Positions 15,358 through 48,688 are shown, counted from the stretch's first letter. The stretch is DNA of 49,196 nt from Candidatus Hydrogenedentota bacterium (GCA_024278275.1 JAJRTN010000125.1:1-49196); one strand, 5' to 3'. Notes: generated by a model from the sequence alone, not told the origin. Numbers and translations are program-made.

Positions 15358-15361
15358 GTTA

Positions 15362-17821: not shown

Positions 17822-17850
17822 GCGTTTGTTCTGATGGACGTTCGTGGATG

Positions 17851-22039: not shown

Positions 22040-22719
22040 GAAAAGAATCCTTTCCTGGATAGTCCTAAAAAAAGCGGGGAAGTTCAGGGCCATGACACAC
22101 GCTTCAGTCCCTTCCCCGTGAAGTCCTGTACAGATGGTCACGAAAACGTGTCGTTGCCTTCGCCATTCCCGCGAACGGGGGAATCACTGAAAAAGAGCGA
22201 AGTCACGCCGTCGCCCCACCGGCTTCTCCCCGATGCGTGGCATGACCCTATTCCCTGCCAGTTTACGGCACGCCCATGGCGTACTACCTTTTGAAGTATC
22301 CAGCCTATCACTGTTCGCCGGAATTTGGAAGGGCCCTTTTCCGGCGTGTTATTTGCGAAAAGGTGATTTTCAGCAGGACCACCGCATGATCCGGTATGTT
22401 GCGGCTCGACGAGCCGAAACATACGAAATACCGGGACCGAACGCGGTCCTACGGATGGCACGTAAAGCGAGCCTCCATTTCGCAAATGCCTCACCAAACC
22501 CAAACCTTGACAACGGGACCATCATGTCGTAAAACAGATCGATGGCGCGCCAAAGCCCACCCCACAAAACTTTCATCCCTCGCCCGCGAACAGGAATACT
22601 ATGAGAGGGGGGCTGTTTCTGGATGGCTTGCATATCAACCGACACGTTCCTTCGCGGGAATGGCGGCAGGGCGGTGCATGGGGCGCGCGGTCAAACACGG
22701 AGGAAAAACGGTGGGCAAG

Positions 22720-28725: not shown

Positions 28726-28757
28726 CCTCCTCGTGGGTGCGGCACGACCGTGCTCCT

Positions 28758-31619: not shown

Positions 31620-31790
31620 TTCACCTTGGCGGATCTGGCTTTCCCCGTTCATGCCCGGCCCCAGCGTGGCGGTATTCCAACATACCCATAGGGTTGTCGC
31701 GCCCTTCGATATCCGGTCCCGTCCGCGGAACTCGAAGCATTTCGAGTTCTCGGTGTGCATGCGTATCGGAACGGACATGACGGCAAATCC

Positions 31791-34176: not shown

Positions 34177-35265
34177 TCAGCCGCCTCCGCCAAAGACCGC
34201 GGACCAAAAGCTGAAGGAGTTGCCCACCGTGCCCACGATGCCGCCAATGTCGGAAGCATTGGCAATGGGGAATTTGCTCTTGAACTTGATGAATTCCACA
34301 TGGCCATCCATCCAGAGCACGTTGCATCCGCCGGGGACATGGTTGAAACGCATGATGCCCGTGTCCGCGGCGTGGGTCTGATCAATGCCGGCGGTGGCCA
34401 ACCATTTGTAGATGCCTTCCTCGGAAAAAGCGTCCATCATGATGGGCAAGGTGCTTTGCGCGATGGCCCCGGCCGCCGGGTTGTTGATGTCCGTGATAAA
34501 GAAACGCTCAATGCCGTCTTTCAGGCGGGGAAGGGTTGACGGCCACGGACTGCCATCGTCATCGACCTGCGGGCCGAAGATGGCAAAGATATGGTCCTGC
34601 ACATTGATGTCACTGTTCCAGGGAGCATAATTTCTGAGGTCCACCACGAAGTTGTTGAATTGACTGAAGGCGGTCCCGTCACAGCCTTGGTTGATCATCT
34701 CCTGTCCCGATGTCTGCGGGTTGTCGTAAAAGCCCGGGCGGGCATAGGAGATATTATAGGCCGCGCTGACCCCCCATAAGGTGGCCTCGGTTCGGGCCGC
34801 GTTGGGCACATACCAATACGAAACCGGTTGCGAAAGCATGAAGTTCAAACATGCCCGGTTGTTGTTTTGGCCCTGCGCGATGGTCGCAATGTCCTGAATC
34901 TGCTGGGCGAAATCGTCTTTCACGCCAAAGCGCTCTCCCCAGAGGTCGCCCCGGGGATCCGAAGGACAGACGGCAATGTTTGGATCCGTCCAGTAGTCCG
35001 GGTAGAGCACCTCGCCCGCGTAGGCCAGGTGTGCCGTCGTCCACGATGGGATGTTCACCGTGGAATGACCGGGATAGAGTCCGCCCCGGTCTTCGCCGGA
35101 ATACATCTTGAAGATGATTCCCCACTGCTTGAGGTTGTTGGCGCATGATGCGCGTCGTGCCGCCTCCCGCGCCCGCGCCAGGGCGGGCAGCAAGATGGCG
35201 GCCAGGATGCCAATAATGGCGATGACGACCAAGAGCTCGATGAGTGTAAAGCCTCTCTTGTTCAT
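34177..35265 (-). CDS. DUF1559 / H-X9-DG protein with prepilin-type N-terminal cleavage-methylation domain (type II secretion pseudopilin-like)
   Basis: The N-terminus ([47 protein letters not shown]) is the hallmark of this PVC-superphylum family. A perfect Shine-Dalgarno sequence (AAGGAGA) lies 5 nt before the ATG. Confidence 0.85.
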
Positions 35266-36422: not shown

Positions 36423-36488
36423 AAAAATTCCAGGAGTATATTGCATAATGGTATTTCTTTATGCTACGCTGTCATCCATAAAGGGGCC

Positions 36489-37361
36489 CATATGAACGCT
36501 TCAGCCAACACGAAGGATTTGAACGGAAACTGCCTGGCCCGGCTTCGCGCCTGGACGAAACAGGGCAAGGGTTCCGTGCCGGCGATTGCCGCTTTTGTGC
36601 TGGAAAACCCCGAGCAGGCCCTGAACGTGACCATCAATGAATTCGCCTTGCGATCCAAGGCCGCCGTATCGTCGGTTTCCCGTTTTTGCACCACCATCGG
36701 CTATTCGGGTTACAAGGAGTTTCAACTGGATCTTGCCGCCTCGCTTGCCCAACAGCCGCCGTCCCTGGGGGTTTTCGATGCCCATGCCGCCCCCCATGAC
36801 ATCATGCACTATGTTTTTGAATGCAACCGGCGCAGCATCCGGGAAACGGAGAAGCTGATCAGCCGGGAAGTCTTTGTCGAAGTGGCCCGGTTGATCCATG
36901 AATCGCACCGGGTGTATGTGCTTGGCGTGGGCGCTTCGGGGCTGGTGGCCCGGCAGGCGGCCACGCGCTTCATGAGCCTGGGGCTCACGGCATCGGCGTT
37001 GACGGACCCCTATCTCCAGGTATTCGTGACGGAAAACCTGGGGAAAAGCGATGTCGTCATCGGCGTGAGTCACACCGGCTTGACCCGTTCGGTGGTGGAG
37101 AGCGTCGAGGCGGCGCGTACGTGCGCGGCGAGGGCGGTGGCTATTACGAACTACCCGCAATCATCCCTGGCCAAGGCCTGTGACTTTGTGCTGACGACCT
37201 CGTTCGAGTAGCGACGCGCCAACGCGGCGGTGTCCTCCTCGCATATTGCCCAACTGTGCCTGATCGATGCGCTGTACTTCGTCGTGGGAAGTTGGCGATC
37301 CCGTGGCGCCACCGCGTTGGCGGAGCTTGCCGAGAAGCGGGTGCAACGATTGCTTCGCTGA
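36489..37361 (+). pseudogene. RpiR/MurR-family regulator (HTH_6 + SIS domain) interrupted by an in-frame TAG at 37209-37211
   Basis: N-terminal HTH_6 reads INEFALRSKAAVSSVSRFCTTIGYSGYKEFQ. The SIS domain reads VYVLGVGASGLVARQAA...VVIGVSHTGLTRSVVESVEAARTCAARAVAITN. After TTSFE-TAG the same frame continues for 49 codons, encoding the expected SIS C-terminus (SSHIAQLCLIDALYFVV...). Read-through would give a 290-aa protein. Confidence 0.6.
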
Positions 37362-37396
37362 GCCATTCCGACAAAAACAAGGAAGGAAGAAGTTCC

Positions 37397-38746
37397 ATGT
37401 ACAAACGCTACTATGACCCCAACATTTTCCTCAACATGCTGGACGGAATAGATCTCGACAATCACGTGATCGCGTCCTATTACATGAAGGACCGCCTGGA
37501 GGGAATCAAGTTCCTCGACCACTTCTCGCTTGTTCAGGCCATGGGTCTGGAGGGCTCGACCGGCACCTGGGAAAAGGTGGCGGAGGATACGGATGAGTTG
37601 CGCGCCGCCATGTCCAGCCGCATGGTGGGGTATCACGAGATCCCCGGGGAAGATGAATACACGAAGGCGGCCGTGGTCCAACTGGCCTTCCCCATCCGCG
37701 CCTGGGGCGACAACCTGCCCATGATGCTCCTGGCCGTGGCGGGCAACTGCTTCGCCTACTCCAAGAACCTCATCATGACGGATATATTCATCGGTAAGAA
37801 CCTGCTGAAAAAGTTCCAGGGGCCGAAGTTCGGGGTGCCGGGCGTGCGGGAATTGACGGGGGTCAAGGAACGTCCGCTCTCGCTGCACATCATCAAGCCG
37901 AAGATGGGCATGACCCCCGAGCAGACGGCCAACCAGGTCTACCAGACCGCCCTGGGGGGCGCCGACATGTGCAAGGACGACGAGATGCTCGCCGACGCCT
38001 ACAACAGCACGGCGGAACAGCGCGTGCCCGTCATCATGGACGCCATCAACCGGGCGGCCGACAAGATGGGCAAGAAAATGATCTACCTGTGCAGCATCAC
38101 CGATGAAAGCGACAAGATGGTCGCCAAGGCGAAACGGGCCATCGAACTGGGCGCAAACGGCCTGCTGGTGGCCTATTCGGCCGGTCTGCCCGCGTTGCGG
38201 CGCCTCACGTCGGACCCCGATATCACGGTTCCGGTCATGCTGCACGCTTCCCACATGATCGCCATGATGAAGCAGATGGCCTGGCCCGTGCTGGCCAAGT
38301 TGTGTCGCCTCTGCGGGGCGGACCTGATGCTGACGCCCACCTACTGGTCCTCCATCCCCATGGTGTCCATGGAAGAGGGGTTGCGGACTTCTTTCATGCA
38401 GCTCGCCCCCTGGGGGTATATCAAGCCGACTTTCCCCATGCCCTGTGCGGGCGTCTATCCCGGCCTGGCGCCCATCATCATCGGCGAATACGGCACGGAC
38501 ATTGTCATCCCCGCGGGCGGCGGCATGTTGGGCCACCCCGACGGGTACACGGCGGGCGCGAAATCCTGGCAACAGGCCATTGCCGGCGCGCTGTCGGAAG
38601 ACGACTTCATCGAGTTTGCGAAGAAACCCGAAAATGGCGAGTTGCGCCGCGCCATCGAGCATTGGGGTTACATCGAGCGTCCCAAGGCGCCGTGGCTGCG
38701 GGTGGCTCCCGAGTTCCATCCCAAGCCCATGAAGTTTGATGATTGA
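37397..38746 (+). CDS. RuBisCO large-subunit-like protein (form IV RLP)
   Basis: A strong Shine-Dalgarno sequence (AGGAAGGAAG) precedes the start. RuBisCO large-chain motifs are present: IKPKMGMTPEQ (cf. IKPKLGLS, Lys175) and GGADMCKDDEML (cf. GGLDFTKDDE, the carbamylated Lys201 position). The protein is 449 aa and lies 35 nt downstream of RpiR. Confidence 0.85.
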   Translation: MYKRYYDPNIFLNMLDGIDLDNHVIASYYMKDRLEGIKFLDHFSLVQAMGLEGSTGTWEKVAEDTDELRAAMSSRMVGYHEIPGEDEYTKAAVVQLAFPIRAWGDNLPMMLLAVAGNCFAYSKNLIMTDIFIGKNLLKKFQGPKFGVPGVRELTGVKERPLSLHIIKPKMGMTPEQTANQVYQTALGGADMCKDDEMLADAYNSTAEQRVPVIMDAINRAADKMGKKMIYLCSITDESDKMVAKAKRAIELGANGLLVAYSAGLPALRRLTSDPDITVPVMLHASHMIAMMKQMAWPVLAKLCRLCGADLMLTPTYWSSIPMVSMEEGLRTSFMQLAPWGYIKPTFPMPCAGVYPGLAPIIIGEYGTDIVIPAGGGMLGHPDGYTAGAKSWQQAIAGALSEDDFIEFAKKPENGELRRAIEHWGYIERPKAPWLRVAPEFHPKPMKFDD

Positions 38747-39298
38747 ATCCGGCACGGCCGACCATCGTTTTTTTGACGACCCAAAAGTGCGGCAGGAAAA
38801 GCGGTAACCGTTTACGGCATCCCGCGCCCGCCCTTGGACAATGGGGCCGGTTGGGACCGATAGAGGGAGGATAGAGCTTTGTTTTCTTATGTGACGCTGT
38901 GGAGTCCGTAGGACTTCAATGGAAAAGCGCCGCGGCGCAGACCGCCGTATTATGCTGAAATGACGGTGTTCGCCGTGACATTGGATGGCTTGAGGCCTAC
39001 CGGCCTCACAGCCGAGGGCGGCTGTGCCACATTCAAGTGAAGACTGCGCCGTGAACAGTTACGCTTTCACGGGGATAACGATCCTGGTGATGTTGCCGGT
39101 AACGTTCTTGGCGCACGGCTTCGCGGGTCACGTGACAATTCAGGCGAGACGCCCGCGATAGTCTCTTACCAGTACATTTCTTTACAAATAGGCACGAAAA
39201 GGTGATTGCATCTTTTCCTTGGCCCCAGGGTTCTCCGTGGAGACAAAAACCTGGTTCCGGCTTGGCCGGGTTAGGCGTTCCCGCGGGGGACCGTGGGA

Positions 39299-40801
39299 AT
39301 GAGGAAGAAAAGGGCTGACGCAAAAGTGAAGCGGTATCTCGCATTTGACCTGGGCGCCGAAAGCGGGCGTTGCATGTTGGGCCAACTTGACGGCGGCACG
39401 TTGGAAATCACGGAATTGCTCCGTTTCCCCAACGGTCCGGTCAACGTGAACGGCACCCTCTATTGGGATATCCTCGGCATCTACAAGAATATGCTGGAGG
39501 GGTTGTCCCTCTTCGCGCGGCGGTACGGACCGGAAGCCGATGGCATCGGCGTGGATAGCTGGGCCCTGGACTTCGGCCTCCTGGACAAGCAGGACAACCT
39601 TTTACAGAATCCCGTTTGCTACCGGGACGGGCGCACCGAGGGCATGGTGGAGGCGGTGTCGGCCACGGTGGAGCCCGGGGAAATTTTTCGTCGCACGGGC
39701 CTCAACGTGAACGCCATTCACACGTTGTTCCAACTGAAGGCCGTCGCCGAACGCAGCCCGGAGGTGCTCGAACGGACGGCTTGCCTGCTCAACATCCCCA
39801 GTTTGCTGGCCTGCTTCCTGTGCGGGGCGAAGGTGGCGGAGCACACCCTCGCGGGGACCACGCAACTCTACGATCCCCGCACCCGCGCATGGGACGCCGA
39901 ACTGCTGGGAATGCTCGATCTGCCGGTGGAGATTCTTCCGGAGATCGTGGAACCCGGCACGCTCTTGGGTGAATTGAGCGAGGCGGCGAAGGCCGCCACC
40001 GGCCTGACGCATGCGCCCGTTTTTGCCACCTGCACACACGACACGGCGGCGGCCGTGGCCTCGGTGCCGGGGGAGGGCGAGGATTGGGCGTTTATCAGTT
40101 CTGGCACGTGGTCGGTCTTCGGCACGCTCTCGGCCGAAGTGATCACGTCGGACCGTGCCCGCGCGGCGGGCGTGTGCAACGAGCCGGCATTCGGCGGAAA
40201 CTTCGTCTGCAAGAACCTGATGGGCCTGTGGCTGCTTCAACAGGCGCGGGCCTCATGGCGGCGCCAGGGGAAGGAACTCTCCTACGGGGAACTCGCGGCG
40301 GCGGCGTGGGAAGCACCCAAAGGGGGGCCGCTGGTATCGGTGGCGCACCCCGGTTTCCTCGTCCCGTCCGACATGGTGGAAGAGATTCAGCGCTTCTGCC
40401 GGGCCACCGGACAGACCGCGCCGGATTCCGTGCCCGAGGTAACCCGCTGCATTCTTGAGAGCCTGGCGCTCTGCTATCGGCAAAGCCTGGAGGATTTGAG
40501 GGCTGTCACGGGAAAAAGTATCAACCGGATTCACGTGGTGGGTGGCGGTTCACTCAACCAACCCCTGTGCCGGTTTACCGCGGCGGCTTGTGGCGTACCC
40601 GTGGCCGCGGGCCCGAAGCAGGCCACCGCCGCGGGGAACCTGCTGACCCAGGCCGCCGCCGAACTGGGCGGTCCGGAGGGAATCCGGTCCGTCGTAAAAA
40701 ACTCATTCCCCCTGAAAACATACGGGCCGGTCGATGACGACGGGTACTGGAAGAAGCGTTACGAAACGTATCTGCGAATCGAAGCATCGGGGCTTTCCTG
40801 A
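39299..40801 (+). CDS. rhaB: FGGY-family sugar kinase, best match rhamnulokinase
   Basis: Conserved blocks resemble E. coli RhaB (comparison from memory): AFDLGAESGRCML, GVDSWALDFGLLD, YRDGRTEG, NLMGLWLLQ, CILESLALCY and IHVVGGGSLN. The start is at the internal ATG, not the GTG at 39293. Confidence 0.75.
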   Translation: MRKKRADAKVKRYLAFDLGAESGRCMLGQLDGGTLEITELLRFPNGPVNVNGTLYWDILGIYKNMLEGLSLFARRYGPEADGIGVDSWALDFGLLDKQDNLLQNPVCYRDGRTEGMVEAVSATVEPGEIFRRTGLNVNAIHTLFQLKAVAERSPEVLERTACLLNIPSLLACFLCGAKVAEHTLAGTTQLYDPRTRAWDAELLGMLDLPVEILPEIVEPGTLLGELSEAAKAATGLTHAPVFATCTHDTAAAVASVPGEGEDWAFISSGTWSVFGTLSAEVITSDRARAAGVCNEPAFGGNFVCKNLMGLWLLQQARASWRRQGKELSYGELAAAAWEAPKGGPLVSVAHPGFLVPSDMVEEIQRFCRATGQTAPDSVPEVTRCILESLALCYRQSLEDLRAVTGKSINRIHVVGGGSLNQPLCRFTAAACGVPVAAGPKQATAAGNLLTQAAAELGGPEGIRSVVKNSFPLKTYGPVDDDGYWKKRYETYLRIEASGLS

Positions 40802-40816
40802 ACGGAGGACCAAGCC

Positions 40817-41797
40817 ATGTTGAAGGACTACTACTTTGGCGCCTGTCTGCCGACCTTTGGCAACTGCGCGGACCGCTATTGCCAAGGCGGCTACAAGCGT
40901 GATTTCACGATGGACGAGATGCTGGACCGCTCGCTGGAAGTGGGCAGCATCGACGGGCTGGAGTTGGTGGGCAACTGGCATGTCAACGATGGGAATGTGC
41001 GCGAAGTGGCGCAAAAGTTCAGGGACAGAAACCTGAAGATCCCCATGCTGGTGCCCGATCTCTGGACACAGGCGAAATGGGGCAAGGGCAGCCTCGCGGC
41101 GTCGGACGCCGCGACCCGGCAGGCCGCCATCGACGAAGTGCGGAAGGTCATGGACTGGGCCGCCGAACTCGATTGTCCCTACGTGGATGTCTGGCCGGGG
41201 CAGGATGGCTTCGACTACCCCTTCCAGGCGGACTACGTTTCGGCCTGGTCGTGGCTGCGTGAGGGCATCGCCGCGTGCGCGGGCCACAACGACCAGGTGA
41301 AGGTGCTGGTGGAGTACAAGCTCAAGGAGCCCCGCCGTCACTGCTTTATCGACAGCGCGGCGCGGACGCTGATGCTCCTGGACGGCATCGATAACACGGG
41401 GGTGCTCCTGGACGTGGGTCATGCCATGGCGGCGGGAGAAAACATCGCGGAGGCCGTGGCATTTCTGAACGCCTACGGCAAGCTGGATTACCTGCACCTG
41501 AACGACAACTACCGCGCCTGGGACGACGACATGATTTTCGGTTCGGTGAATCTCATCGAGGATCTGGAATTGCTGTACTGGCTCAAGCGTGTCGGGTACC
41601 AGGGCTGGCTCACCCTCGACATCTTTCCCTTCCGCATCGACGGTGTCGATGCGGCGAAGGCGTGTCAAAGCTGGATAGACGGCCTGCTCAACGCGCTGGA
41701 GAAGGTTGGCCAGGCGTCTTTTGACGTGGCCGTGGCCTCGGGTGATCCCGTGCAGGCGGGCGTCATTATCCGGGAAGCGCTTGGACTGGGCCGGTAG
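40817..41797 (+). CDS. sugar (phosphate) isomerase/epimerase, xylose-isomerase-like TIM barrel
   Basis: The protein is 326 aa with a pattern of acidic and His metal ligands typical of AP-endonuclease-2 / xylose-isomerase-like TIM barrels (VLVEYKLKEP, LLDVGH, LHLNDN). The stop is TAG. Confidence 0.65.
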   Translation: MLKDYYFGACLPTFGNCADRYCQGGYKRDFTMDEMLDRSLEVGSIDGLELVGNWHVNDGNVREVAQKFRDRNLKIPMLVPDLWTQAKWGKGSLAASDAATRQAAIDEVRKVMDWAAELDCPYVDVWPGQDGFDYPFQADYVSAWSWLREGIAACAGHNDQVKVLVEYKLKEPRRHCFIDSAARTLMLLDGIDNTGVLLDVGHAMAAGENIAEAVAFLNAYGKLDYLHLNDNYRAWDDDMIFGSVNLIEDLELLYWLKRVGYQGWLTLDIFPFRIDGVDAAKACQSWIDGLLNALEKVGQASFDVAVASGDPVQAGVIIREALGLGR

Positions 41798-41818
41798 GCG
41801 GAAGGGGATTATCGAATC

Positions 41819-42076
41819 ATGGCGACAGCAATCAAGATCCCGGACATGGGAACCACCGTGGACACCATGGTCCTGGAGACCTGGCTTGTCGAGGAAGGTG
41901 AAACCATCGACCGCGGCGACGTGATCGCCGAGATCCAGACCGACAAGGCCCTCACGGACCTGGAGTCTTTCGCGCGCGGCACGTTACTGAAGAAAATGGT
42001 GACCGAAGGCGCCGAGGTTCAGGTGGGGGACGTGATCGCCTACCTGGGAGAACCCGGCGAGGAAATCCCCGGATGA
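41819..42076 (+). CDS. stand-alone lipoyl-attachment domain protein (E2-type lipoyl carrier, 85 aa)
   Basis: The lipoyl-lysine motif is AEIQTDKALTDLES, within a biotinyl/lipoyl hybrid-barrel pattern (IKIPDMG...GETIDRGDVIAEI). No E2 catalytic domain follows. It is in the same reading frame as the upstream isomerase, separated by TAG plus 7 codons. Confidence 0.75.
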   Translation: MATAIKIPDMGTTVDTMVLETWLVEEGETIDRGDVIAEIQTDKALTDLESFARGTLLKKMVTEGAEVQVGDVIAYLGEPGEEIPG

Positions 42077-42096
42077 CCCCGGGAAAGGAAGAATAC

Positions 42097-43062
42097 ATGC
42101 CGTCGAAGTATGAGCCGACTTTTCTGCTGGACCTGTACCGGAAGATGGTCCTCATCCGGCAGTTCGAGGACCGGGTGAAGTTCCTCTTTCTGGAGGGCAT
42201 CATGCCGGGCACCATCCACCAGTACCAGGGACAGGAGGCGATAGCCGCGGGGGTTTGCGCCGCGCTGAATACTGACGACATCATCACCAGCACCCACCGT
42301 CCCCATGGCCACGCGCTGGCGAAGGGCCTTAGCGCCGAATCGCTGCTGCACGAGCTTTTCGGGAAACCTTCCGGGTGTTGTTGTGGCAAGGGGGGCTCCA
42401 TGCACGTGGGCGACCTGGAAAAGGGGATGCTGCCCGCCATTGCCATCGTGGGCGGAGGCGTGCCCATCGCCACGGGCTGCGCCCTGGCCTTCAAGATGCG
42501 CGGCGAAAAACGGGTGGCGGTCAGCTTTTCGGGCGACGGCGCCGTGAACGAGGGCGCCTTCCACGAGGGCGTCAACATGGGCGCCATCTGGGATCTCCCC
42601 GTCATTTACGTCATCGAGAACAACCTGTATTCGGCCTCCACGCCCATCGCCGACACGGTGAAGCTTGAAAAGGTTTCCGACCGGGCCGCGGGCTACGGCA
42701 TACCGGGGGTCACGGTGGACGGCAACGATGTGGTCGCCATGTATGAAGCGGCGCGGGGCGCGGTGGAACGGGCACGCAACGGGGAGGGGCCCACCTTGAT
42801 CGAGGCTGTCACCTACCGCATCACGGGCCATTCCCGGCGAGACCCCTGCAACTATCAGCCCAAGGAGCAGCGCCGGGAGGCCAGGAAGCGGGAACCCATC
42901 AGGCGATTCGCCAGGTACCTGGTGGAGAAGGGGCTGGTCACCGAGGCCGAGCTGGACATGTTCCGCGAGGAGATTGACGCAGAGATCGAACGCGCCGTGG
43001 AATCCGCCCAGGCCGCGCCGGACCCGGCTCCCGAGTTCGCCCTGGAAGGGCTCTGGGCCTGA
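42097..43062 (+). CDS. TPP-dependent dehydrogenase E1 component, alpha subunit (AcoA/PdhA-like)
   Basis: The TPP-binding motif reads GDGAVNEGAFHEGVNMGAIWDLPVIYVIENN. The phosphorylation-loop-like region reads YRITGHSRRD. The start at 42097 has a strong Shine-Dalgarno sequence (GGAAAGGAAG). An alternative ATG at 42073 overlaps the upstream stop by 4 nt. Confidence 0.8.
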   Translation: MPSKYEPTFLLDLYRKMVLIRQFEDRVKFLFLEGIMPGTIHQYQGQEAIAAGVCAALNTDDIITSTHRPHGHALAKGLSAESLLHELFGKPSGCCCGKGGSMHVGDLEKGMLPAIAIVGGGVPIATGCALAFKMRGEKRVAVSFSGDGAVNEGAFHEGVNMGAIWDLPVIYVIENNLYSASTPIADTVKLEKVSDRAAGYGIPGVTVDGNDVVAMYEAARGAVERARNGEGPTLIEAVTYRITGHSRRDPCNYQPKEQRREARKREPIRRFARYLVEKGLVTEAELDMFREEIDAEIERAVESAQAAPDPAPEFALEGLWA

Positions 43063-43108
43063 GATCACCGGAACATTACGCGGATTACACGGGAAGAGAG
43101 GTACGGAA

Positions 43109-44125
43109 TTGGCACGATTGAGCATTGCCGAAGCGCTCCGACAGACGCTTCGTGAAGAAATGAACCGGGACGAGCGGGTTTTCTGCATCGGGGAAGACAT
43201 CGCCATTCCCGGCGGCTGGGGCGGCGCTTTCACGGTGACACTGGGCCTGGAGGAGGATTTCAAGGACCGCATGATCAACACGCCCATCTCCGAAGCGGGC
43301 TTCACGGGCGTGGCCCTCGGCGCGGCGCTCATGGGGCTGCGTCCCGTGGCGGACGTGCAGTACGGGGACTTTCTCCTGTGCGCCATGGACCAGATGGTGA
43401 ACCAGGTCGCGAAGATGCGCTACATGTCCGGCGGCAAGATCAAGGTGCCCTTCGTCATGCGCGCGCCCACGGGGGCGACGGGCCGCGGCACGCAGCACGC
43501 GCAAAACCTGGAAAGCATGTTCTTGCAGGCGCCCGGATTCAAGATCGCCTGTCCCGCCACGGCCTACGATGCGGTGGGGCTTTTGCGTGCCGCCATCCGC
43601 GACGACAACCCGGTACTCCTTTTCGAGCACAAGCTGCTCTACGGCTCCAAGGGCGCCCGGGCCGAAACGGGCGCCATGGATGCGTCGAGCGAGATTCCCG
43701 AAGAGGATTACGTCGTGCCGCTGGGCAAGGGCATCGTGCGCCGCGAAGGGAGCGACATCACGGTGATCGCCCCGCTGCTCATGATGCACCGGGCCCTGGA
43801 GGCCGCGGAGATCCTGGCGGATGAAGGCGTATCGGTCGAAGTCATCGACCCGCGCAGTCTCGTGCCCTTCGATTGGGAACTGGTGGAAACCTCGGTGCGG
43901 AAGACCGGGCGCCTCGTGGTGGCCCAGGAAGGTCCCTTGCGCGGAGGGCTGTGCGGCGACATTGCCGCCGAGATGGGCGAACGCTGCTTTGATGCGCTCA
44001 AGGCCCCCGTGCTCCGGGTGGCCTCGCCGGACATCCCCGCGCCCTTCGCCCCGGCGATGGAGGCCTTCTACCGCCCTGACGCGGCGCGGATCGTGGATGC
44101 GGTCCGGAAAACCGTAAAGGATTGA
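43109..44125 (+). CDS. TPP-dependent dehydrogenase E1 component, beta subunit (transketolase-like Pyr and C domains)
   Basis: A TTG start is inferred from the conserved N-terminus (ARLSIAEALRQTLREEMNRDERVFCIGEDI). Further motifs are GFTGVALGAALMGLRPV and MRAPTGATGRG. Confidence 0.75.
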   Translation: MARLSIAEALRQTLREEMNRDERVFCIGEDIAIPGGWGGAFTVTLGLEEDFKDRMINTPISEAGFTGVALGAALMGLRPVADVQYGDFLLCAMDQMVNQVAKMRYMSGGKIKVPFVMRAPTGATGRGTQHAQNLESMFLQAPGFKIACPATAYDAVGLLRAAIRDDNPVLLFEHKLLYGSKGARAETGAMDASSEIPEEDYVVPLGKGIVRREGSDITVIAPLLMMHRALEAAEILADEGVSVEVIDPRSLVPFDWELVETSVRKTGRLVVAQEGPLRGGLCGDIAAEMGERCFDALKAPVLRVASPDIPAPFAPAMEAFYRPDAARIVDAVRKTVKD

Positions 44126-44135
44126 GGGGACAAGC

Positions 44136-44741
44136 ATGGCGGAACTGCGCAGCTATATCGTGATCGACAGTTTGCAGGAGCAGTTGGCGGCGTTCATGGC
44201 CTCCACGGTGGTAGGCTACATGCCCGTGGCGGGCATGGCGGCCCTTTTCGTGGAGGTGGCGCCCGGCATGGAGATCGTGCGCCTCCTCGACGTGGCCGTG
44301 AAGGCCACCAACACGCGGCCCGCCATCCAGGTGGTCGAGCGCAGCTTCGGCACCCTCGAAGTTCACTCCGAAAACCAGGGCGACGTTCGGCAGGCGGGCC
44401 GGGCCGTGCTCGACGCCATGGGGCTTACCGAGGCCGACCGGGACGAACCCCGGGTGGCCTCGTCCACGGTCATTCGGCACATCGATCCCTACCAGGCCGC
44501 GCTGATCAACAAGAGCCGGCAGGGGAGCATGTTGCTTGCGGGGCAGACGGTGTTCATACTGGAGACCCAGCCGGCGTTGTACGCCGTGCTGGCGGCCAAC
44601 TAGGCGGAAAAGGCAAGCCGCGTCACGTTGGTGGATATCCGCCCCTTCGGCAATTTCGGCCGGCTATACCTGGCCGGGGAAGAAGCGGACGTGGTCGTGG
44701 GAAGCGAGGCCGCCATCGCGGCCCTGGAAACATGCCGCTAG
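44136..44741 (+). pseudogene. tandem BMC-domain shell protein (BMC-T-like), reading frame interrupted by in-frame TAG at 44601-44603
   Basis: A GAGGGGA Shine-Dalgarno sequence precedes the start. The first, divergent BMC-like domain reads AALFVEVAPGMEIVRLLDVAVKATNTRPAIQVVERSFGTLEVHSENQGDVRQAGRAVLDAMG. After ...ILETQPALYAVLAAN-TAG the same frame continues AEKASRVTLVDIRPFGNFGRLYLAGEEADVVVGSEAAIAALE. This completes a canonical BMC fold (cf. [27 protein letters not shown]...[13 protein letters not shown]). As annotated to the first TAG the product is 155 aa; read-through would give 201 aa. Confidence 0.5.
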
Positions 44742-44777
44742 CGGTTCATTACGGATGGAAAACCGGGAGATCAGGTC

Positions 44778-45071
44778 ATGGCTGATGCGTTGGGTATGAT
44801 TGAATGCAAGGGATTCGCGGCGATGGTTGAGGCATCGGACGCGATGGTGAAGGCCGCCAAGGTGGAACTGGTGGGCTACGAGAAGATCGGCGGCGGCTAC
44901 GTGACGGCCATCGTGCGCGGCGACGTGGCCGCGGTCAAGGCGGCCTGCGAGGCGGGCGAACGGGGCGCTCGTGCCGTGGGCGAGGTCGTTTCGGTGCATA
45001 TCATCCCGCGGCCCCACGACAACGTGGATTCCGCACTCCCCCTGGGCCGCCCCCAGGCCGTCAAGAAATAG
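44778..45071 (+). CDS. BMC-H hexameric shell protein (PduA/EutM-like)
   Basis: The sequence [64 protein letters not shown]...VHIIPRPH is a textbook Pfam00936 match. The stop is TAG. Confidence 0.9.
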
Positions 45072-45114
45072 CGCCCCGGGCGACACACGCACGATCCCAT
45101 GGAGATAAAGCCCC

Positions 45115-45426
45115 ATGCAAATTGGACGCGTTATCGGGACGGTCGTCTCGACCGCGAAGGAACCGGCGCTGGAAGGCCGTAGATTCCTGCTGGTCCAGTT
45201 CCTCGACCTCGACGCACGAACAACTTCCTCCTACGTGGTGGCGGTGGATGCCGTCGGCGCGGGCACGGGCGAGGTGGTTCTCGTCGCCACGGGCAGTTCC
45301 GCGCGCCAGACGGAGACCACGAGCAATCGGCCTTGCGACGCGGTTGTCATGGCCATTATCGACTCGTGGGACGTCCATGACGAGGTGAAGTGGCGCAAGG
45401 CCGATGATACGCCGGGAGACGGGTGA
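45115..45426 (+). CDS. BMC-P vertex protein (EutN/CcmL/PduN family), copy 1
   Basis: The N-terminus is MQIGRVIGTVVSTAK. Further motifs are FLLVQ and VAVDAVGAGTGEVVLVATGSSAR. Confidence 0.85.
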   Translation: MQIGRVIGTVVSTAKEPALEGRRFLLVQFLDLDARTTSSYVVAVDAVGAGTGEVVLVATGSSARQTETTSNRPCDAVVMAIIDSWDVHDEVKWRKADDTPGDG

Positions 45427-46823
45427 TGCCTGTTTCTCCCAACGACATAGAGCAGGCCGTTCGTGAAGTCCTCAAGCGAATCGAGGGCGAAGGTGAAACC
45501 CCCGGCCCGGTGTCGTCTCCGGCGGTGGATGACGCGGTGGAACGCGCGCGCCGCGCCTACGACGCCTACTGCGGCATGGGCCTCAACAAGCGCCATGAGA
45601 TGGTCGCCGCCATGCGGGAAGCGGCCAAGGCCCATGTGAAGACCTTCGCTGCGGATGCCGTGCGCGAAACCGGGCTCGGGCGGGTCGAGGACAAGATCCG
45701 CAAGAACCTGCTGGTCATCGTGAAAACGCCCGGCCCGGAAATACTCACCCCCGCCGCGCAAACAGGCGACCATGGCTTGATGCTGACGGAGCGCGCCCCA
45801 CACGGGGTTATCGGATCCATCACCCCGTGTACCAATCCCACCGAAACGGTGATCAACAACGCCATCAGCATGGTGAGCGGCGGAAACGGCGTGGTCTTCA
45901 ACGCCCATCCCGCCGCGGCCAAGTGCTCACAGGAGTGCATCCGGGTGCTGTCGGAGGCCATCGTCGCCGCGGGCGGACCGCCCGACCTGGTCGTGGGCGT
46001 GGAACAGCCCACCATAGAGACCGCCAGGGCCCTCATGGGGAGTCCCGGCGTGGCCCTCCTGTGTGTTACCGGCGGCGCGGCCGTGGTGAAGGCCGCCATG
46101 CTGTCCGGCAAGAAAGTGGTCGCGGCCGGCCCCGGCAATCCGCCGGTCGTCGTCGATGAGACGGCGGACCTGGCGAAGGCCGCGCGCGCCACGGTCCAGG
46201 GCGCGTCCCTGGACAACAACATCATCTGCGTTTCCGAGAAGGAGGCGGTCGTGGTCGATGCCGTGGCCGATGCCTTCAAACGGCATATGATGGAGGAGGG
46301 CTGTGTCGAGGTCTCCGGTCGCGACCGCGACCGGCTCTGCGACCTGATCTTCGCGTCCCGCGACGGCAACCGGGGCGTAATGAACAAGGATCTGATCGGC
46401 AAGGACGCCAGTGTCATACTGGACCGGATAGGCATCCGCGCCGCGCCGGAAACGCGCCTTGTCATTATGGACGTTCCGGCGGATCATCCGCTCCCCTGGA
46501 CCGAGCAACTCATGCCGGTCTTCCCCATCGTTCGCGTTTCCGACGTGGACGCGGCCATTGGCCTGGCCCTTCGCTACGAGGGCGGCCGACGGCATACCGC
46601 CGTCATGCACTCGCGCAATATCGACAAACTCAGCAAGATGGCCCGCCTGGCCAACTGTTCCATTTACGTGAAGAACGGTTCGTCCCTGGCGGGGCTCGGC
46701 ATGGGGGGCGAAGGCTACACCTCTTTCACGATTGCCAGCCCCACCGGCGAGGGGCTCACCACCGCGGTGAGTTTCACCCGCCTGCGGCGATGCACCCTCG
46801 TGGACGCCTTCAGGATCATATGA
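45426..46823 (+). CDS. CoA-acylating aldehyde dehydrogenase (PduP/EutE family) with N-terminal encapsulation-peptide-like helix
   Basis: The start overlaps the BMC-P stop (GTGATG). The N-terminal amphipathic segment DIEQAVREVLKRIEG is followed by a Gly/Pro-rich linker. The catalytic Cys region reads DNNIICVSEKE, and EGYTSFTIASPTGEG is also present. Confidence 0.85.
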   Translation: MPVSPNDIEQAVREVLKRIEGEGETPGPVSSPAVDDAVERARRAYDAYCGMGLNKRHEMVAAMREAAKAHVKTFAADAVRETGLGRVEDKIRKNLLVIVKTPGPEILTPAAQTGDHGLMLTERAPHGVIGSITPCTNPTETVINNAISMVSGGNGVVFNAHPAAAKCSQECIRVLSEAIVAAGGPPDLVVGVEQPTIETARALMGSPGVALLCVTGGAAVVKAAMLSGKKVVAAGPGNPPVVVDETADLAKAARATVQGASLDNNIICVSEKEAVVVDAVADAFKRHMMEEGCVEVSGRDRDRLCDLIFASRDGNRGVMNKDLIGKDASVILDRIGIRAAPETRLVIMDVPADHPLPWTEQLMPVFPIVRVSDVDAAIGLALRYEGGRRHTAVMHSRNIDKLSKMARLANCSIYVKNGSSLAGLGMGGEGYTSFTIASPTGEGLTTAVSFTRLRRCTLVDAFRII

Positions 46824-47386
46824 TGAGCATTCTCGGCCTCATGGAATTCGACGGCATCACGCCGGGCATGATCGCCACTGACGCCATGGTCAAGCGGGCG
46901 CCGGTGACCGTGTTGGAAACCGGCCCCATCGACCCGGGAAAGTACCTTACGGTCCTCACCGGCGACCTGGCCTGTGTCGAGGAGGCCGTCGCCGCGGGCG
47001 ATGAAAGCGGCGGCGCGCACGTGGTGCGTGGCGTCGTTCTCGCGAACCTGCACGACGGCGTGATCCCCGCGCTGAAGGGCGAGGCCCCCGACCCGGAACC
47101 GGGCGCCGTGGGCATCGTGGAGACCTCGGACACCGTGGCCGCCGTCCATGCCGCCGACGCCGCCTGCAAAGCCGCCCCGGTGGCGTTGATTACGTTGCAC
47201 CTCGCCCGTCACATCGGCGGCAAGGGCTACCTGGTGATGGTGGGCGTTCTCGCCGATGTCGAAGCGTCGGAACAGGCCGCGCGGGAGGCGGCCGCACGGT
47301 CCCTCGTGGATTCCACCGTCATCCCGCAGCCCGACGAAGCGTTCTTCGCGCGCTTGTTGCGGCCGGCGCCGTTCCGGAGGCTGTGA
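46820..47386 (+). CDS. BMC-T tandem-domain shell protein, PduT-like
   Basis: An ATGA overlap links it to the aldehyde dehydrogenase. Domain 1 reads ILGLMEFDGITPGMIATDAMVKRAPVTVLETGPIDPGKYLTVLTGDLACVEEAV. Domain 2 reads AVGIVETSDTVAAVHAADAACKAAPVALITLHLARHIGGKGYLVMVGVLADVEASEQAA. Confidence 0.75.
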   Translation: MMSILGLMEFDGITPGMIATDAMVKRAPVTVLETGPIDPGKYLTVLTGDLACVEEAVAAGDESGGAHVVRGVVLANLHDGVIPALKGEAPDPEPGAVGIVETSDTVAAVHAADAACKAAPVALITLHLARHIGGKGYLVMVGVLADVEASEQAAREAAARSLVDSTVIPQPDEAFFARLLRPAPFRRL

Positions 47387-47670
47387 AACCGGTGATTCCC
47401 GCGCGCGTCATAGGCAGACTCGTTCCGGCCGCCACGCTGGCGGCCTTCAAGGGCGTTCCCTTTCTCATCGTGCAACCGGTGGACGAACACCTCCAGGACC
47501 GCGGCGCTCCGAAAGTGGCCTGCGACGCCATCGGGGCCAACGTGGGCGAAGTGGTGTTCATGGCACAGGGCGGCGAGGCGACCTTTCCGCTTCCGGAGCC
47601 CTTCAACCCCTCGGACACCACCATCGTGGCCATCGTGGACGAAGTCACCCCGGCCGGAGAAACGTCATGA
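47383..47670 (+). CDS. BMC-P vertex protein (EutN/CcmL family), copy 2
   Basis: A GTG start overlaps the BMC-T stop (GTGA). Motifs are IPARVIGRLVPAAT, FLIVQPV and VACDAIGANVGEVVFMAQGGEA. Confidence 0.75.
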   Translation: MKPVIPARVIGRLVPAATLAAFKGVPFLIVQPVDEHLQDRGAPKVACDAIGANVGEVVFMAQGGEATFPLPEPFNPSDTTIVAIVDEVTPAGETS

Positions 47671-47939
47671 AACTGGCGCGCGTTCTCGCACAAGTTGTGG
47701 CCACCCGGAAGCACCCCTTCTATCACGGACGCAAGACCTTCATGGTGCGGACACTCGACCTGGAGGGAAAGGAGACCGGGCCCGCCTTTGTCGCCGTGGA
47801 CCGCGTCCAGGCGGGCGTGGGCGACCGCGTGTTGCTCATGCAGGACGGCGGGTCCGCACGTATCATGTTCGACGCGCCCGAGGGGCCGGTGCGGAGCACC
47901 ATCGTGGGCATCGTGGATGCCGTGGAGATGACAGAATGA
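47667..47939 (+). CDS. BMC-P vertex protein (EutN/CcmL family), copy 3
   Basis: An ATGA overlap links it to copy 2. Motifs are MKLARVLAQVVATRK, FMVRTLD and VAVDRVQAGVGDRVLLMQDGGSAR. Confidence 0.8.
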   Translation: MKLARVLAQVVATRKHPFYHGRKTFMVRTLDLEGKETGPAFVAVDRVQAGVGDRVLLMQDGGSARIMFDAPEGPVRSTIVGIVDAVEMTE

Positions 47940-48688
47940 CGGAACTGGAACAGCGAAAAGCGGTCTGCGATGTAGGCCGCCGACTCTATGAGAAAAACCT
48001 CGCCCTCGCGACGGACGGAAACATCAGCATCCGCCTCGGACCCGACCGCTATCTCTGCACGCCCAGCGGCGTGCCCAAGGGATTCATGAAACCGAATGAC
48101 CTGCTCGTCGCGGACGGCGCGGGCCGCAAATTGTCGGGCGCGGGCAAGGTCACGAGCGAGTTCAACACCCACCTCGTGTGTTACCGCGAACGGCCCGACA
48201 TTCATGCCGTGGTCCATGCCCATCCTCCCAAGGCCATCGGGCTCAGCATCGCGGAAATCGATCTGACCGAACTCGTCCTCCCCGAGGTGGTTTACACCAT
48301 CGGCGGAATCCCCACCTCCGGCTACGCCACGCCGGGCACCACGGAAGGGGGCGAAGCCATCGTGGACCTCATCCGGCAGTGCGACGCGGTCATGCTCGAC
48401 CGGCATGGCGCGGTCACCGTGGGACAGGATGTGTACGATGCCCTCTTCAAGATGGAGAAAGTGGAAACGGCGGCCGAGTCTCTGCTCATCGCACACCTCC
48501 TGGGCAATGTGCGAAGCCTGGACCGGCAACAGGTGGAAAAGCTCGAAGCCGTTCGCGAGGCCTACAACCCCCATGGCAGGGCCTACACCGAGGCCGGCGC
48601 CGAGGACGCCCTCGCTCCGGGCGCGGCGAACACCCCCGAGCTGGACCGCATCATCGCGGAAACATTGCAGACCCTGGGCTTGGCCTGA
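47936..48688 (+). CDS. class II aldolase/adducin-family protein (rhamnulose-1-P / fuculose-1-P aldolase-like)
   Basis: An ATGA overlap links it to BMC-P copy 3. The metal-binding His cluster reads HAVVHAHPP...HG. The phosphate-binding N-terminal region reads GNISIRL...TPSG. Confidence 0.8.
   Translation: MTELEQRKAVCDVGRRLYEKNLALATDGNISIRLGPDRYLCTPSGVPKGFMKPNDLLVADGAGRKLSGAGKVTSEFNTHLVCYRERPDIHAVVHAHPPKAIGLSIAEIDLTELVLPEVVYTIGGIPTSGYATPGTTEGGEAIVDLIRQCDAVMLDRHGAVTVGQDVYDALFKMEKVETAAESLLIAHLLGNVRSLDRQQVEKLEAVREAYNPHGRAYTEAGAEDALAPGAANTPELDRIIAETLQTLGLA

Follow-up and report, generated by a model that had tools for sequence, protein, structure and literature searches.

Which sugar, and which reactions, does a bacterial microcompartment (BMC) serve when its shell genes lie in one operon with a sugar kinase, a sugar isomerase and a dehydrogenase of the pyruvate dehydrogenase (PDH) family? 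This question is raised by a contig of 49,196 bp from a Candidatus Hydrogenedentota bacterium (GCA_024278275.1, JAJRTN010000125.1:1-49196), referred to here in its full length as the window. Between the ATG of a kinase gene at position 39299 and the stop codon of an aldolase gene at 48688, the plus strand carries 13 tightly packed co-directional genes. These form a real operon, and it specifies an aldehyde-oxidising metabolosome with a sugar-phosphate-splitting aldolase. The reading that we favor, at a probability of roughly 0.55, is that a metabolosome operon of the SPU/HO lineage has become joined to a pre-existing sugar-catabolic module, such that a 6-deoxy-ketose-1-phosphate is split and the resulting aldehyde oxidised inside the shell. 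What is new here is the presence of a RuBisCO-like protein (RLP) and a PDH-like E1 in a microcompartment operon, a combination that has not been described before.

Organization of the operon

An initial annotation, made from the sequence alone, had described co-directional genes over the interval from 39299 to 48688, and reading of the open reading frames (ORFs) bears this out. It counted fourteen genes, most of them joined by 4 bp overlaps, and here the details differ. The count of fourteen arises because an in-frame TAG codon (44601-44603) cuts a two-domain shell gene in two, so that 13 genes read as 14 ORFs. Stop and start codons overlap at just six of the 12 junctions, five by 4 nt and one by 1 nt, and these are concentrated in the shell half of the operon; the other junctions are gaps of 10-46 bp. 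The conserved unit also reaches upstream to an RpiR-family regulator and the RLP (36441-38746), both of which are kept in related loci. The initial annotation was silent on these two genes, as well as on the E1 and lipoyl genes and on the nonsense codons.

Every operon gene assignment is backed by matches to Pfam and NCBIfam profiles (Table 1). NCBIfam scores were compared with the curated equivalog cut-offs, and comparisons with solved structures are given as bit scores to proteins in the PDB. The single BMC-H, the three BMC-P and the PduT-like BMC-T genes match PF00936 or PF03319 as had been predicted, and the predicted class II aldolase, RhaB-like FGGY kinase, TIM-barrel isomerase and PduP/EutE-type aldehyde dehydrogenase (AldDH) are all present. 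The second tandem-BMC gene is a more complex case: it encodes a CcmP-like BMC-Tdp when read through the TAG codon, and matches the CcmP model NF053796 over its full length (261 bits), but as it stands the ORF is split and the pieces have no Pfam match.

Table 1. Coordinates of the operon and its upstream genes, in positions of the window
Feature	Coordinates	Strand	Characteristics
RpiR-family regulator (HTH_6 and SIS)	36441-37361	+	Pfam; in-frame TAG at 37209-37211
RLP, form IV, 449 aa	37394-38746	+	PF00016 and PF02788
Unique spacer between RLP and kinase genes	38747-39298	.	552 bp; unusually long
FGGY kinase, RhaB/FcsK-like, candidate 6-deoxy-ketohexose 1-kinase	39299-40801	+	FGGY_N/C
Xylose-isomerase-like TIM-barrel sugar isomerase	40817-41797	+	PF01261
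Free-standing lipoyl domain, 85 aa	41819-42076	+	PF00364, 63 bits; lipoyl-lysine motif TDKA kept
E1 alpha, thiamine diphosphate (ThDP)-dependent	42073-43062	+	PF00676, 305 bits; GDG...NN ThDP motif intact
E1 beta, 338 aa, TTG start	43109-44125	+	PF02779 and PF02780; NF006667, 325 bits
CcmP-like BMC-Tdp, 201 codons	44136-44741	+	In-frame TAG at 44601-44603
BMC-H	44778-45071	+	PF00936, 102 bits; KAAK/PRPH edge motifs standard
BMC-P 1	45115-45426	+	PF03319, 109 bits
CoA-acylating AldDH, EutE/PduP class	45426-46823	+	PF00171; NF011927, 617 bits
PduT-like BMC-Ts	46820-47386	+	Two PF00936 stretches (117 bits); TIGR02526, 110 bits; PduT, 121 bits
BMC-P 2	47383-47670	+	PF03319, 69 bits
BMC-P 3	47667-47939	+	PF03319, 86 bits
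Class II (Zn) aldolase with C-terminal linker and amphipathic helix (PELDRIIAETLQTLGLA)	47936-48688	+	PF00596, 158 bits

Enzymes predicted to be encapsulated

The AldDH begins with an amphipathic encapsulation helix (NDIEQAVREVLKRI) followed by a Pro/Gly-rich linker, as the initial annotation had proposed from the N-terminus, and its catalytic cysteine lies within NNIICVSEKE. The 16-residue N-terminal helix is also present in the most closely related locus, L081 (L numbers denote loci recovered in the searches described below). The aldolase retains the Zn-ligand histidines and the glutamate base of FucA, as read from the sequence. Its nearest solved structures are of the FucA type (69 bits), it scores only 53 bits against the RhaD model, and its best curated match is OtnC at 120 bits against a cut-off of 250. 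In sequence it is FucA-like rather than RhaD-like, and it falls below every curated cut-off. At its C-terminus is a helix that is conserved in four loci (PELDRIIAETLQTLGLA in the window and SDLDNIIEDTLRILG in L085) while the linker that precedes it is variable; this helix is a putative encapsulation peptide (EP). Neither the kinase, the TIM-barrel isomerase, E1 alpha, E1 beta nor the RLP has a terminal extension relative to homologues from loci without shell genes, and by the usual rule, therefore, only the aldolase and the AldDH would be encapsulated.

Kinase, isomerase and the probable substrate

The kinase scores 387 bits against the rhamnulokinase model TIGR02627 (cut-off 528) and 350 bits against NF007925 (cut-off 639), and far less against E. 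coli-type FucK (111 bits), XylB (95 bits) and GlpK (55 bits); it is thus clearly neither a xylulokinase nor a glycerol kinase, either of which would have spoken against the original assignment. Whether it is a rhamnulokinase rather than a fuculokinase, as had been suggested, is not decided by these scores, since among solved structures it is marginally closer to Streptococcus pneumoniae FucK (4C23, 280 bits) than to E. coli RhaB (2CGJ, 265 bits), and with such near-equal scores rhamnulose and fuculose are not separable. The substrate is probably a 6-deoxy-ketohexose, as judged from these similarities. The isomerase has weak matches to the XylA (90 bits) and RhaI (68 bits) models and at most 75 bits to xylose and rhamnose isomerases of known activity; its nearest structure is 3KTC, a 333 aa protein deposited as 'xylose isomerase', at 205 bits over the full length. 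It would seem to represent a family of its own. Further hints of 6-deoxyhexoses come from relatives that lack a shell: L125 carries a RhaT transporter and a short-chain dehydrogenase/reductase resembling the lactaldehyde-dehydrogenase half of RhaEW, and L084 carries a FucI_C protein. Glycoside hydrolases are also found among the neighbours of the module.

A plausible scenario is that a cytosolic isomerase would convert an aldose, most likely L-rhamnose or L-fucose, to the ketose, which the kinase would phosphorylate to the ketose-1-phosphate. The gated Tdp pore may be the route by which this product would reach the shell interior, where the encapsulated aldolase would cleave it to dihydroxyacetone phosphate (DHAP) and an aldehyde, which would be L-lactaldehyde if the substrate is a 6-deoxyhexulose. 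The encapsulated AldDH would then convert the aldehyde with NAD+ to an acyl-CoA (lactaldehyde to lactyl-CoA), with no phosphotransacylase (PTAC) or alcohol dehydrogenase (ADH) for internal cofactor recycling, as in the SPU2, SPU3, SPU5 and HO loci. The 6-deoxyhexose substrate that the initial annotation envisaged is plausible, but its tie to the Planctomycetes-Verrucomicrobia microcompartment (PVM) type is not upheld, for reasons set out in the following section.

Shell proteins and microcompartment type

Among solved structures, the Tdp protein read through its TAG codon is most similar to CcmP (238 bits) and HO-5816 (217 bits), and its homologues in L081, L085 and L171 are intact at 201-206 aa. 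BMC-H is closest to HO-5815, at 152 bits versus 113 for PduA. The three BMC-P proteins are true paralogues with 34-39% mutual identity, and the BMC-Ts protein has an aspartate (in PIDPGKY) at the position of the PduT pore cysteine and has no PduS partner.

These proteins do not make up a PVM shell, which is built from two BMC-H together with three BMC-P proteins without BMC-T (2021 catalog, Supp. Data 2, PMC8217296). The PVM enzymes include PTAC, acetate kinase and a protein like lactate dehydrogenase (LDH) (PMC8217296), and for PVM loci Axen 2014 names DeoR as the regulator, alongside acetate kinase and an enzyme like LDH. The window has the class II aldolase and the acylating AldDH expected of the PVM type, and it has one BMC-H rather than two, together with both Tdp and Ts proteins; Pfam searches of the 13 operon genes and 28 other window proteins found no PTAC (pfam06130), acetate kinase (pfam00871), LDH-like PvmO or DeoR, and we therefore reject the PVM assignment. 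The loci that the catalog calls 'PVMlike' come from Firmicutes and are relatives of GRM5 (PMC8217296); this type was likewise rejected on gene content and context, with no PTAC, one BMC-H versus three BMC-P and a gene context typical of the PVC superphylum (Planctomycetes, Verrucomicrobia, Chlamydiae and relatives) in the window. Nor is the BMC-P triplet, which had been taken as the PVM hallmark, diagnostic, as SPU, HO, FRAG, MIC, ACI and MUF loci also carry one. PTAC, AckA and the lactaldehyde reductase FucO are indeed not in the operon, as had been noted, but their absence is normal for SPU2, SPU3, SPU5 and HO loci and is therefore no anomaly.

The better matches are to these latter types. 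The shell follows the SPU3 pattern of one BMC-H, a BMC-P triplet (by Pfam family), a Tdp of the CcmP clade and a Ts protein that lacks both the cysteine and PduS; a CcmP-like Tdp has been described for SPU2 and SPU3 loci. The core enzymes follow the SPU5/HO type II pattern, in which the AldDH carries an EP at its N-terminus and the pfam00596 aldolase carries one at its C-terminus. DERA (pfam01791) has been proposed as the universal signature enzyme of SPU loci, usually with RpiB (pfam02502) (Dwyer 2024, PMC11585597). Neither PF01791 nor PF02502 was found in the genes of the operon or in the other ORFs of the window that were scanned, and the SPU type proper is rejected. Because this universal signature is not here, the locus lies outside every catalogued type, and none of the Pfam families of its upstream module occurs in the type descriptions or the HMM list of the 2021 catalog.

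RuBisCO-like protein and E1

The RLP is most similar to the 2,3-diketo-5-methylthiopentyl-1-phosphate (DK-MTP-1-P) enolases, with 255 bits to model NF007095 (cut-off 409) and 190 bits to the nearest solved structure (2OEK). Alignment with form III RuBisCO and the MtnW enolases shows that it retains N123, K175, K177, K201, D203, E204, H298, G381, G403 and G404, in which K201-D203-E204 are the carbamate/metal motif and G403 and G404 the C1-phosphate glycines. H294 and R295 fall in an alignment gap, and H327, K334 and S379 are replaced by Leu, Ser and Cys, respectively; because these five residues are not kept, the RLP is not a carboxylase. At the RuBisCO N123 position, which we take to be that of the catalytic lysine of DK-MTP-1-P enolases, the RLP has Asn (AGNC) where MtnW enolases read GK, and since the catalytic lysine is thus replaced it is not an MtnW enolase. 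The residue pattern, with neither the carboxylation nor the C5-phosphate residues kept, probably fits the enolisation of a mono-phosphorylated ketose. The protein is 94% identical to its L081 counterpart and has the lowest ratio of nonsynonymous to synonymous substitution rates (dN/dS) of the locus (0.026); its clade (67-94% identity) includes metagenome-assembled genomes of Phycisphaerae, Thermoguttaceae, Opitutaceae, Bryobacteraceae and Armatimonadetes. It has no terminal extension and is of the same length in loci without shells. Three other identities were considered for the RLP and rejected: a bona fide RuBisCO (the catalytic set is incomplete), an MtnW/YkrW enolase (the catalytic lysine is missing and the 255 bits are below the cut-off), and the cargo of a carboxysome-like organelle (the carboxylation residues are gone, and there is no extension). 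No gene for a small subunit, a carbonic anhydrase or a scaffold protein is present.

The E1 alpha and beta subunits are closest to mitochondrial-type PDH E1. E1 alpha scores 342 bits against TIGR03182 (cut-off 394) and 197 bits against human PDH E1 alpha, and the TTG start of E1 beta, read from the sequence, was set by the length of homologues. In alignments the 85 aa lipoyl protein matches the lipoyl domain at the N-terminus of complete E2 proteins from loci without microcompartment genes, so that it reads as an E2 reduced to its carrier domain, and its gene has a dN/dS of 0.14 in comparison with L081. The shell-less relatives have either a full E2 (lipoyl, E3-binding and catalytic core domains) or a core-less fusion of lipoyl and E3-binding domains to E1 alpha. 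Core-less lipoyl(-E3-binding)-E1 alpha fusions are found at L169:9097-10479, L170:10001-11233, L171:3506-5026, L172:9510-10985 and L173:12492-14003, and these sit in carbohydrate loci with genes for GH9, 3-keto-disaccharide-hydrolase-like, CoA-transferase and PfkB proteins. Such fusions also occur without shells, and we therefore rejected the notion that only shell-coupled loci have lost the E2 core.

Because of the RLP residue pattern and the known chemistry of RLPs and ThDP enzymes, a parallel route could be envisaged. Speculatively, the ketose-1-phosphate would have its carbonyl displaced along the carbon chain by the RLP, and the ThDP-dependent E1 would cut beside the carbonyl, moving the acyl group onto the lipoyl arm and freeing an aldehyde, thus providing a second C-C cleavage. 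If this aldehyde is small and free, recruitment of an AldDH organelle immediately after E1 beta would make sense. Neither an E2 core nor an E3 that could take over the acyl-lipoyl group is encoded in the window.

Two further gene types are found beside E1 in relatives. Genes for URO-D/MtaA-like methyltransferases lie directly upstream of E2-E1 alpha/beta in at least 11 loci (including L136, L094, L095, L110, L113, L091, L099, L100, L102 and L119), and in L136 (6336-8615 and 11976-14820) they are accompanied by genes for a corrinoid protein that binds B12 and for an activator of the RACo type. The corrinoid methyltransferase set is thus among the neighbours of the shell-less sugar module, which suggests that corrinoid-dependent O-demethylation of a methylated sugar feeds the same pathway. 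In L125 (3655-4542) a DeoC/LacD-fold protein matches LsrF (3-hydroxy-5-phosphonooxypentane-2,4-dione thiolase) at 509 bits, above the cut-off, and an LsrF-type gene lies just downstream of E1 beta in the shell-less loci L099, L100, L102 and L119. These neighbours hint that the clusters handle 1-deoxy-diketo sugar phosphates.

Comparison of related loci

A search with E1 alpha recovered the same order of 15 genes (RpiR, RLP, kinase, TIM-barrel isomerase, lipoyl, E1 alpha, E1 beta, Tdp, H, P, AldDH, Ts, P, P and aldolase) in L081/L082/L089, L085 and L171 (three other assemblies, one further lineage). The L081/L082/L089 proteins are 72-95% identical to those of the window and the L085 proteins (GCA_964481775.1) 47-86%; in L171 E1 alpha is a fusion protein that includes the lipoyl and E3-binding domains. 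When the window is compared with L081, dS is 0.7-1.8, so that synonymous sites are near saturation, and dN/dS is 0.03-0.17 in all 14 genes compared (RpiR was left out), including those for the lipoyl protein, E1 and the RLP. The conserved order and the low dN/dS therefore show that the fusion of the modules is conserved and selected in at least two lineages.

The two modules also occur apart. A genome scan based on Tdp gave 80 loci from many phyla, most with the order Tdp-H-P-AldDH-Ts-P-P and a few with the aldolase as well, and none of the 80 has the kinase, TIM-barrel isomerase, lipoyl, E1 or RLP genes. A metagenome scan with E1 alpha gave 80 loci, 19 of which were usable (identity of 64% or more, with 5 kb or more of sequence upstream). 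The RLP and the TIM-barrel isomerase are present in seven of these 19 loci, the kinase in four and a URO-D/MtaA-like gene in 11; shell genes are present in none. The RLP, TIM-barrel isomerase and E1 genes are also linked in L172 and L173. Judged by these distributions, the shell and sugar modules have separate histories, and the sugar module is widespread without a shell.

Nonsense codons and upstream region

An AraC regulator gene lies just upstream of the operon, beside the RpiR/SIS gene and the RLP. The RpiR gene is interrupted by an in-frame TAG (Table 1), and its homologues in L085, L087 and L110 align past this codon in the same frame to approximately position 37358-37376 (tblastn). Both this TAG and that in the Tdp gene are GAG in L081, so that both lesions are GAG to TAG changes at conserved codons; they may be real mutations, population variants or base-call errors. 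A heuristic scan of the 49 kb window found no other interrupted gene. Reassignment or read-through of TAG was rejected, as TAG ends the isomerase, Tdp and BMC-H genes where their homologues end, and no tRNA gene is found in the window, which we count against it too.

The spacer between the RLP and kinase genes is 552 bp, in contrast to 72-199 bp or overlapping genes in the relatives. It has no Rfam family, no repeat, no similarity elsewhere and no convincing promoter or terminator; these scans gave nothing to indicate a riboswitch or a mobile element.

Alternative explanations

Several observations weigh against the reading of an SPU/HO-lineage metabolosome fed by an aldolase. For no enzyme of the 13-gene operon does the score reach the curated cut-off of an equivalog with a defined substrate; the kinase falls short of the RhaB equivalog and the aldolase of OtnC. 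In the second shell-coupled lineage, the AldDHs of L085 (13319-14695) and L171 (7343-8719) lack the N-terminal helix. The model gives the RLP, E1 and lipoyl proteins no necessary role, yet these are as constrained as the shell genes, and no E2 catalytic core (PF00198) or E3 is present in the operon or among the scanned window proteins. Class II aldolases are absent from the shell-less relatives, so that there the kinase product must be consumable by the RLP and E1 alone, and the aldolase route therefore looks redundant. The nonsense codons in RpiR and Tdp may mean that this copy is impaired. Lastly, the aldolase gene ends approximately 500 bp before the end of the contig, and only this contig was seen. 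A rather unlikely alternative is an organelle driven by E1, in which the RLP isomerises the ketose-1-phosphate, E1 alpha/beta is the true aldehyde-generating signature enzyme and the aldolase is accessory. E1 would act like acetoin dehydrogenase, freeing acetaldehyde or lactaldehyde and loading what is left of the substrate on the lipoyl carrier. Shell and AldDH would have been recruited for the aldehyde, with the AldDH functionally replacing a lost E2 core and E3. The shell genes do follow E1 beta directly in all four BMC-coupled assemblies, the E2 catalytic domain kept by many shell-less relatives is missing from all of the BMC-coupled loci, the lipoyl and both E1 genes are under purifying selection, and the RLP retains the enolisation residues and a single phosphate site. 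The LsrF-type thiolase, which cleaves a 1-deoxy-diketo-sugar phosphate and is encoded beside E1 alpha/beta in the five loci named above, points to methyl-ketone or diketo sugar-phosphate chemistry. But the E1 subunits, when compared with homologues from shell-less loci, have neither EP nor extension. In SPU5/HO loci the conventional signature enzyme is the aldolase that bears the EP, and core-less fusions without a shell (L169, L170, L172 and L173) show that the E2 core has also been lost independently of a shell. Nor was a biochemical precedent found: the searched literature has none for an RLP with rhamnose, FGGY or acetoin dehydrogenase, or for a microcompartment with lipoyl or transketolase proteins. 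A related proposal, still tentative and on the doubtful side, is an undescribed 6-deoxy-sugar pathway in which the RLP isomerises, E1 with its stand-alone lipoyl arm cleaves and an SPU/HO-type microcompartment oxidises the aldehyde fragment.

That the locus is decaying or silenced, its nonsense codons marking early pseudogenisation and the organism having no working organelle, is improbable: both TAGs (37209 and 44601) are at conserved GAG codons and the only interrupted genes detected in the window fall in this locus, but the RLP and the 12 other genes of the operon have kept their full length without interruption, in-frame conservation persists downstream of both stops, losing a repressor and a non-essential Tdp need not end function, and, the assembly being environmental, errors of base calling or of the consensus could account for the stops. 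A little less probable still is a fucose/rhamnose metabolosome of the PVM or PVM-like type, with the genes for PTAC, acetate kinase and lactaldehyde reductase located elsewhere. Such an organelle would have the aldolase, AldDH, BMC-P triplet and RhaB-like kinase seen here; the DUF1559/N_methyl protein and sulfatase are a context typical of the PVC superphylum, and PVM organelles are reported in Verrucomicrobia and Planctomycetes grown on rhamnose. It is contradicted by the single BMC-H and the two BMC-T types, by shell relatives that are closest to HO and CcmP, by the operon's lack of PTAC, AckA, an LDH-like protein and DeoR, by the Firmicute, GRM5-related nature of the catalogued 'PVMlike' loci, and by the 80 syntenic relatives of the shell module, which include Chloroflexota, Myxococcota and other non-PVM phyla. 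Least probable, and very much so, is a 5-deoxypentose or methylthioribose system resembling the DHAP shunt, with an MtnB/Ald2-like aldolase supplying acetaldehyde to the AldDH and the RLP acting as an MtnW-type enolase. The best RLP matches are indeed DK-MTP-1-P enolases, by both model and structure, the aldolase has partial matches to MtnB (71 bits), and acetaldehyde is thought to be the substrate of SPU-family AldDHs; against this, the RLP has Asn rather than the catalytic lysine and scores 255 against 409, the FGGY kinase and TIM-barrel isomerase are not homologous to MtnK and MtnA, and the RhaT, RhaW-like and FucI-like neighbours in relatives favor 6-deoxyhexoses.

Other features of the window

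Among the other regions of the window, we note three consecutive large ORFs of 777, 1005 and 733 aa on the minus strand (26389-33995) and an ORF of 511 aa (20603-22141), all with coding-type GC content at third codon positions and no Pfam or NCBIfam match. They adjoin genes for the DUF1559/N-methyl prepilin-like protein (34177-35265), a protein with an ADP-ribosylglycohydrolase domain and the sulfatase, and are possibly novel polysaccharide-degrading proteins. The region 15000-19000 includes a local GC maximum (0.67) with an AT skew from -0.23 to +0.20, and covers a GH3-LysM protein gene (15362-18016, minus strand) and a PMT_2 glycosyltransferase-like gene.

Significance

The substrate of the aldolase-type HO/SPU5 organelles is an open problem, even though HO is the structural model shell. 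Co-transcription of the shell, AldDH and aldolase genes with an isomerase and a RhaB/FcsK-like kinase provides a testable substrate class. Most RLP clades have no known function; this one is very conserved, is found among environmental polysaccharide degraders from several phyla and shows a consistent link to kinase, isomerase and E1 genes. E1 enzymes with a lipoyl arm but no E2 core are likewise unexplained, and recur here in carbohydrate loci. If the proposed connections are true, the operon would provide the first case of a microcompartment with a functional tie to an RLP and a lipoyl-dependent ThDP enzyme, and both a widespread clade of RLPs and the aldolase-type HO/SPU5 organelles, so far enigmatic, would gain a function. 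The hypotheses are open to in vitro work, since all of the proteins are small, soluble and expressible.

Comparison with known systems

SPU3 loci (Sutter 2021, PMC8217296; Dwyer 2024, PMC11585597) have the same shell inventory as the window and an N-terminal EP on the AldDH, and are found in Verrucomicrobia, Planctomycetes and Lentisphaerae. SPU5 loci carry a C-terminal EP on a pfam00596 aldolase and an N-terminal EP on the AldDH, as in the window, and no PTAC or ADH. SPU loci have DERA and RpiB, whereas the window instead has the FGGY kinase, TIM-barrel isomerase, RLP and E1 alpha/beta with a lipoyl carrier. The Haliangium ochraceum (HO) type II loci share the BMC-P triplet, a BMC-H near HO-5815 and a Tdp near HO-5816. 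The main HO locus encodes only shell proteins, an EP-bearing AldDH and a pfam00596 aldolase, and has been called enigmatic in function; HO loci come mainly from Deltaproteobacteria, with two Tdp proteins (CsoS1D and CcmP clades) and no linked kinase, isomerase, RLP or E1. The PVM of Planctopirus limnophila (Erbilgin 2014, as summarised in PMC4207490 and PMC8217296) shares the class II aldolase, acylating AldDH and BMC-P triplet, a probable 6-deoxyhexose chemistry and a PVC-type host, but has two BMC-H and no BMC-T, and a PTAC (PvmB), an acetate/lactate kinase (PvmG), the LDH-like PvmO and DeoR that the window lacks.

The heterotetrameric E1 of PDH and acetoin dehydrogenase shares the ThDP motif with the window E1, which is most like the mitochondrial-type PDH E1. 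Alphaproteobacterial PdhB, with its own lipoyl domain (model NF008854), likewise ties a lipoyl domain to E1 rather than to the E2 core. PDH and acetoin complexes have an E2 core and E3 and are encoded in operons of central metabolism, whereas the window E1 has neither and lies in a sugar-catabolic cluster. The form IV RLPs (MtnW/YkrW and the Rhodospirillum rubrum 5-methylthioribulose-1-phosphate isomerase) have the same fold as the window RLP and share the KPK motif, the KDDE carbamate/metal motif and the C1-phosphate GG; the window RLP differs from MtnW in having Asn in place of the catalytic lysine and belongs to a tightly conserved clade of its own. This clade is linked to FGGY or PfkB kinases, TIM-barrel isomerases and E1 alpha/beta, and not to genes for methionine salvage.

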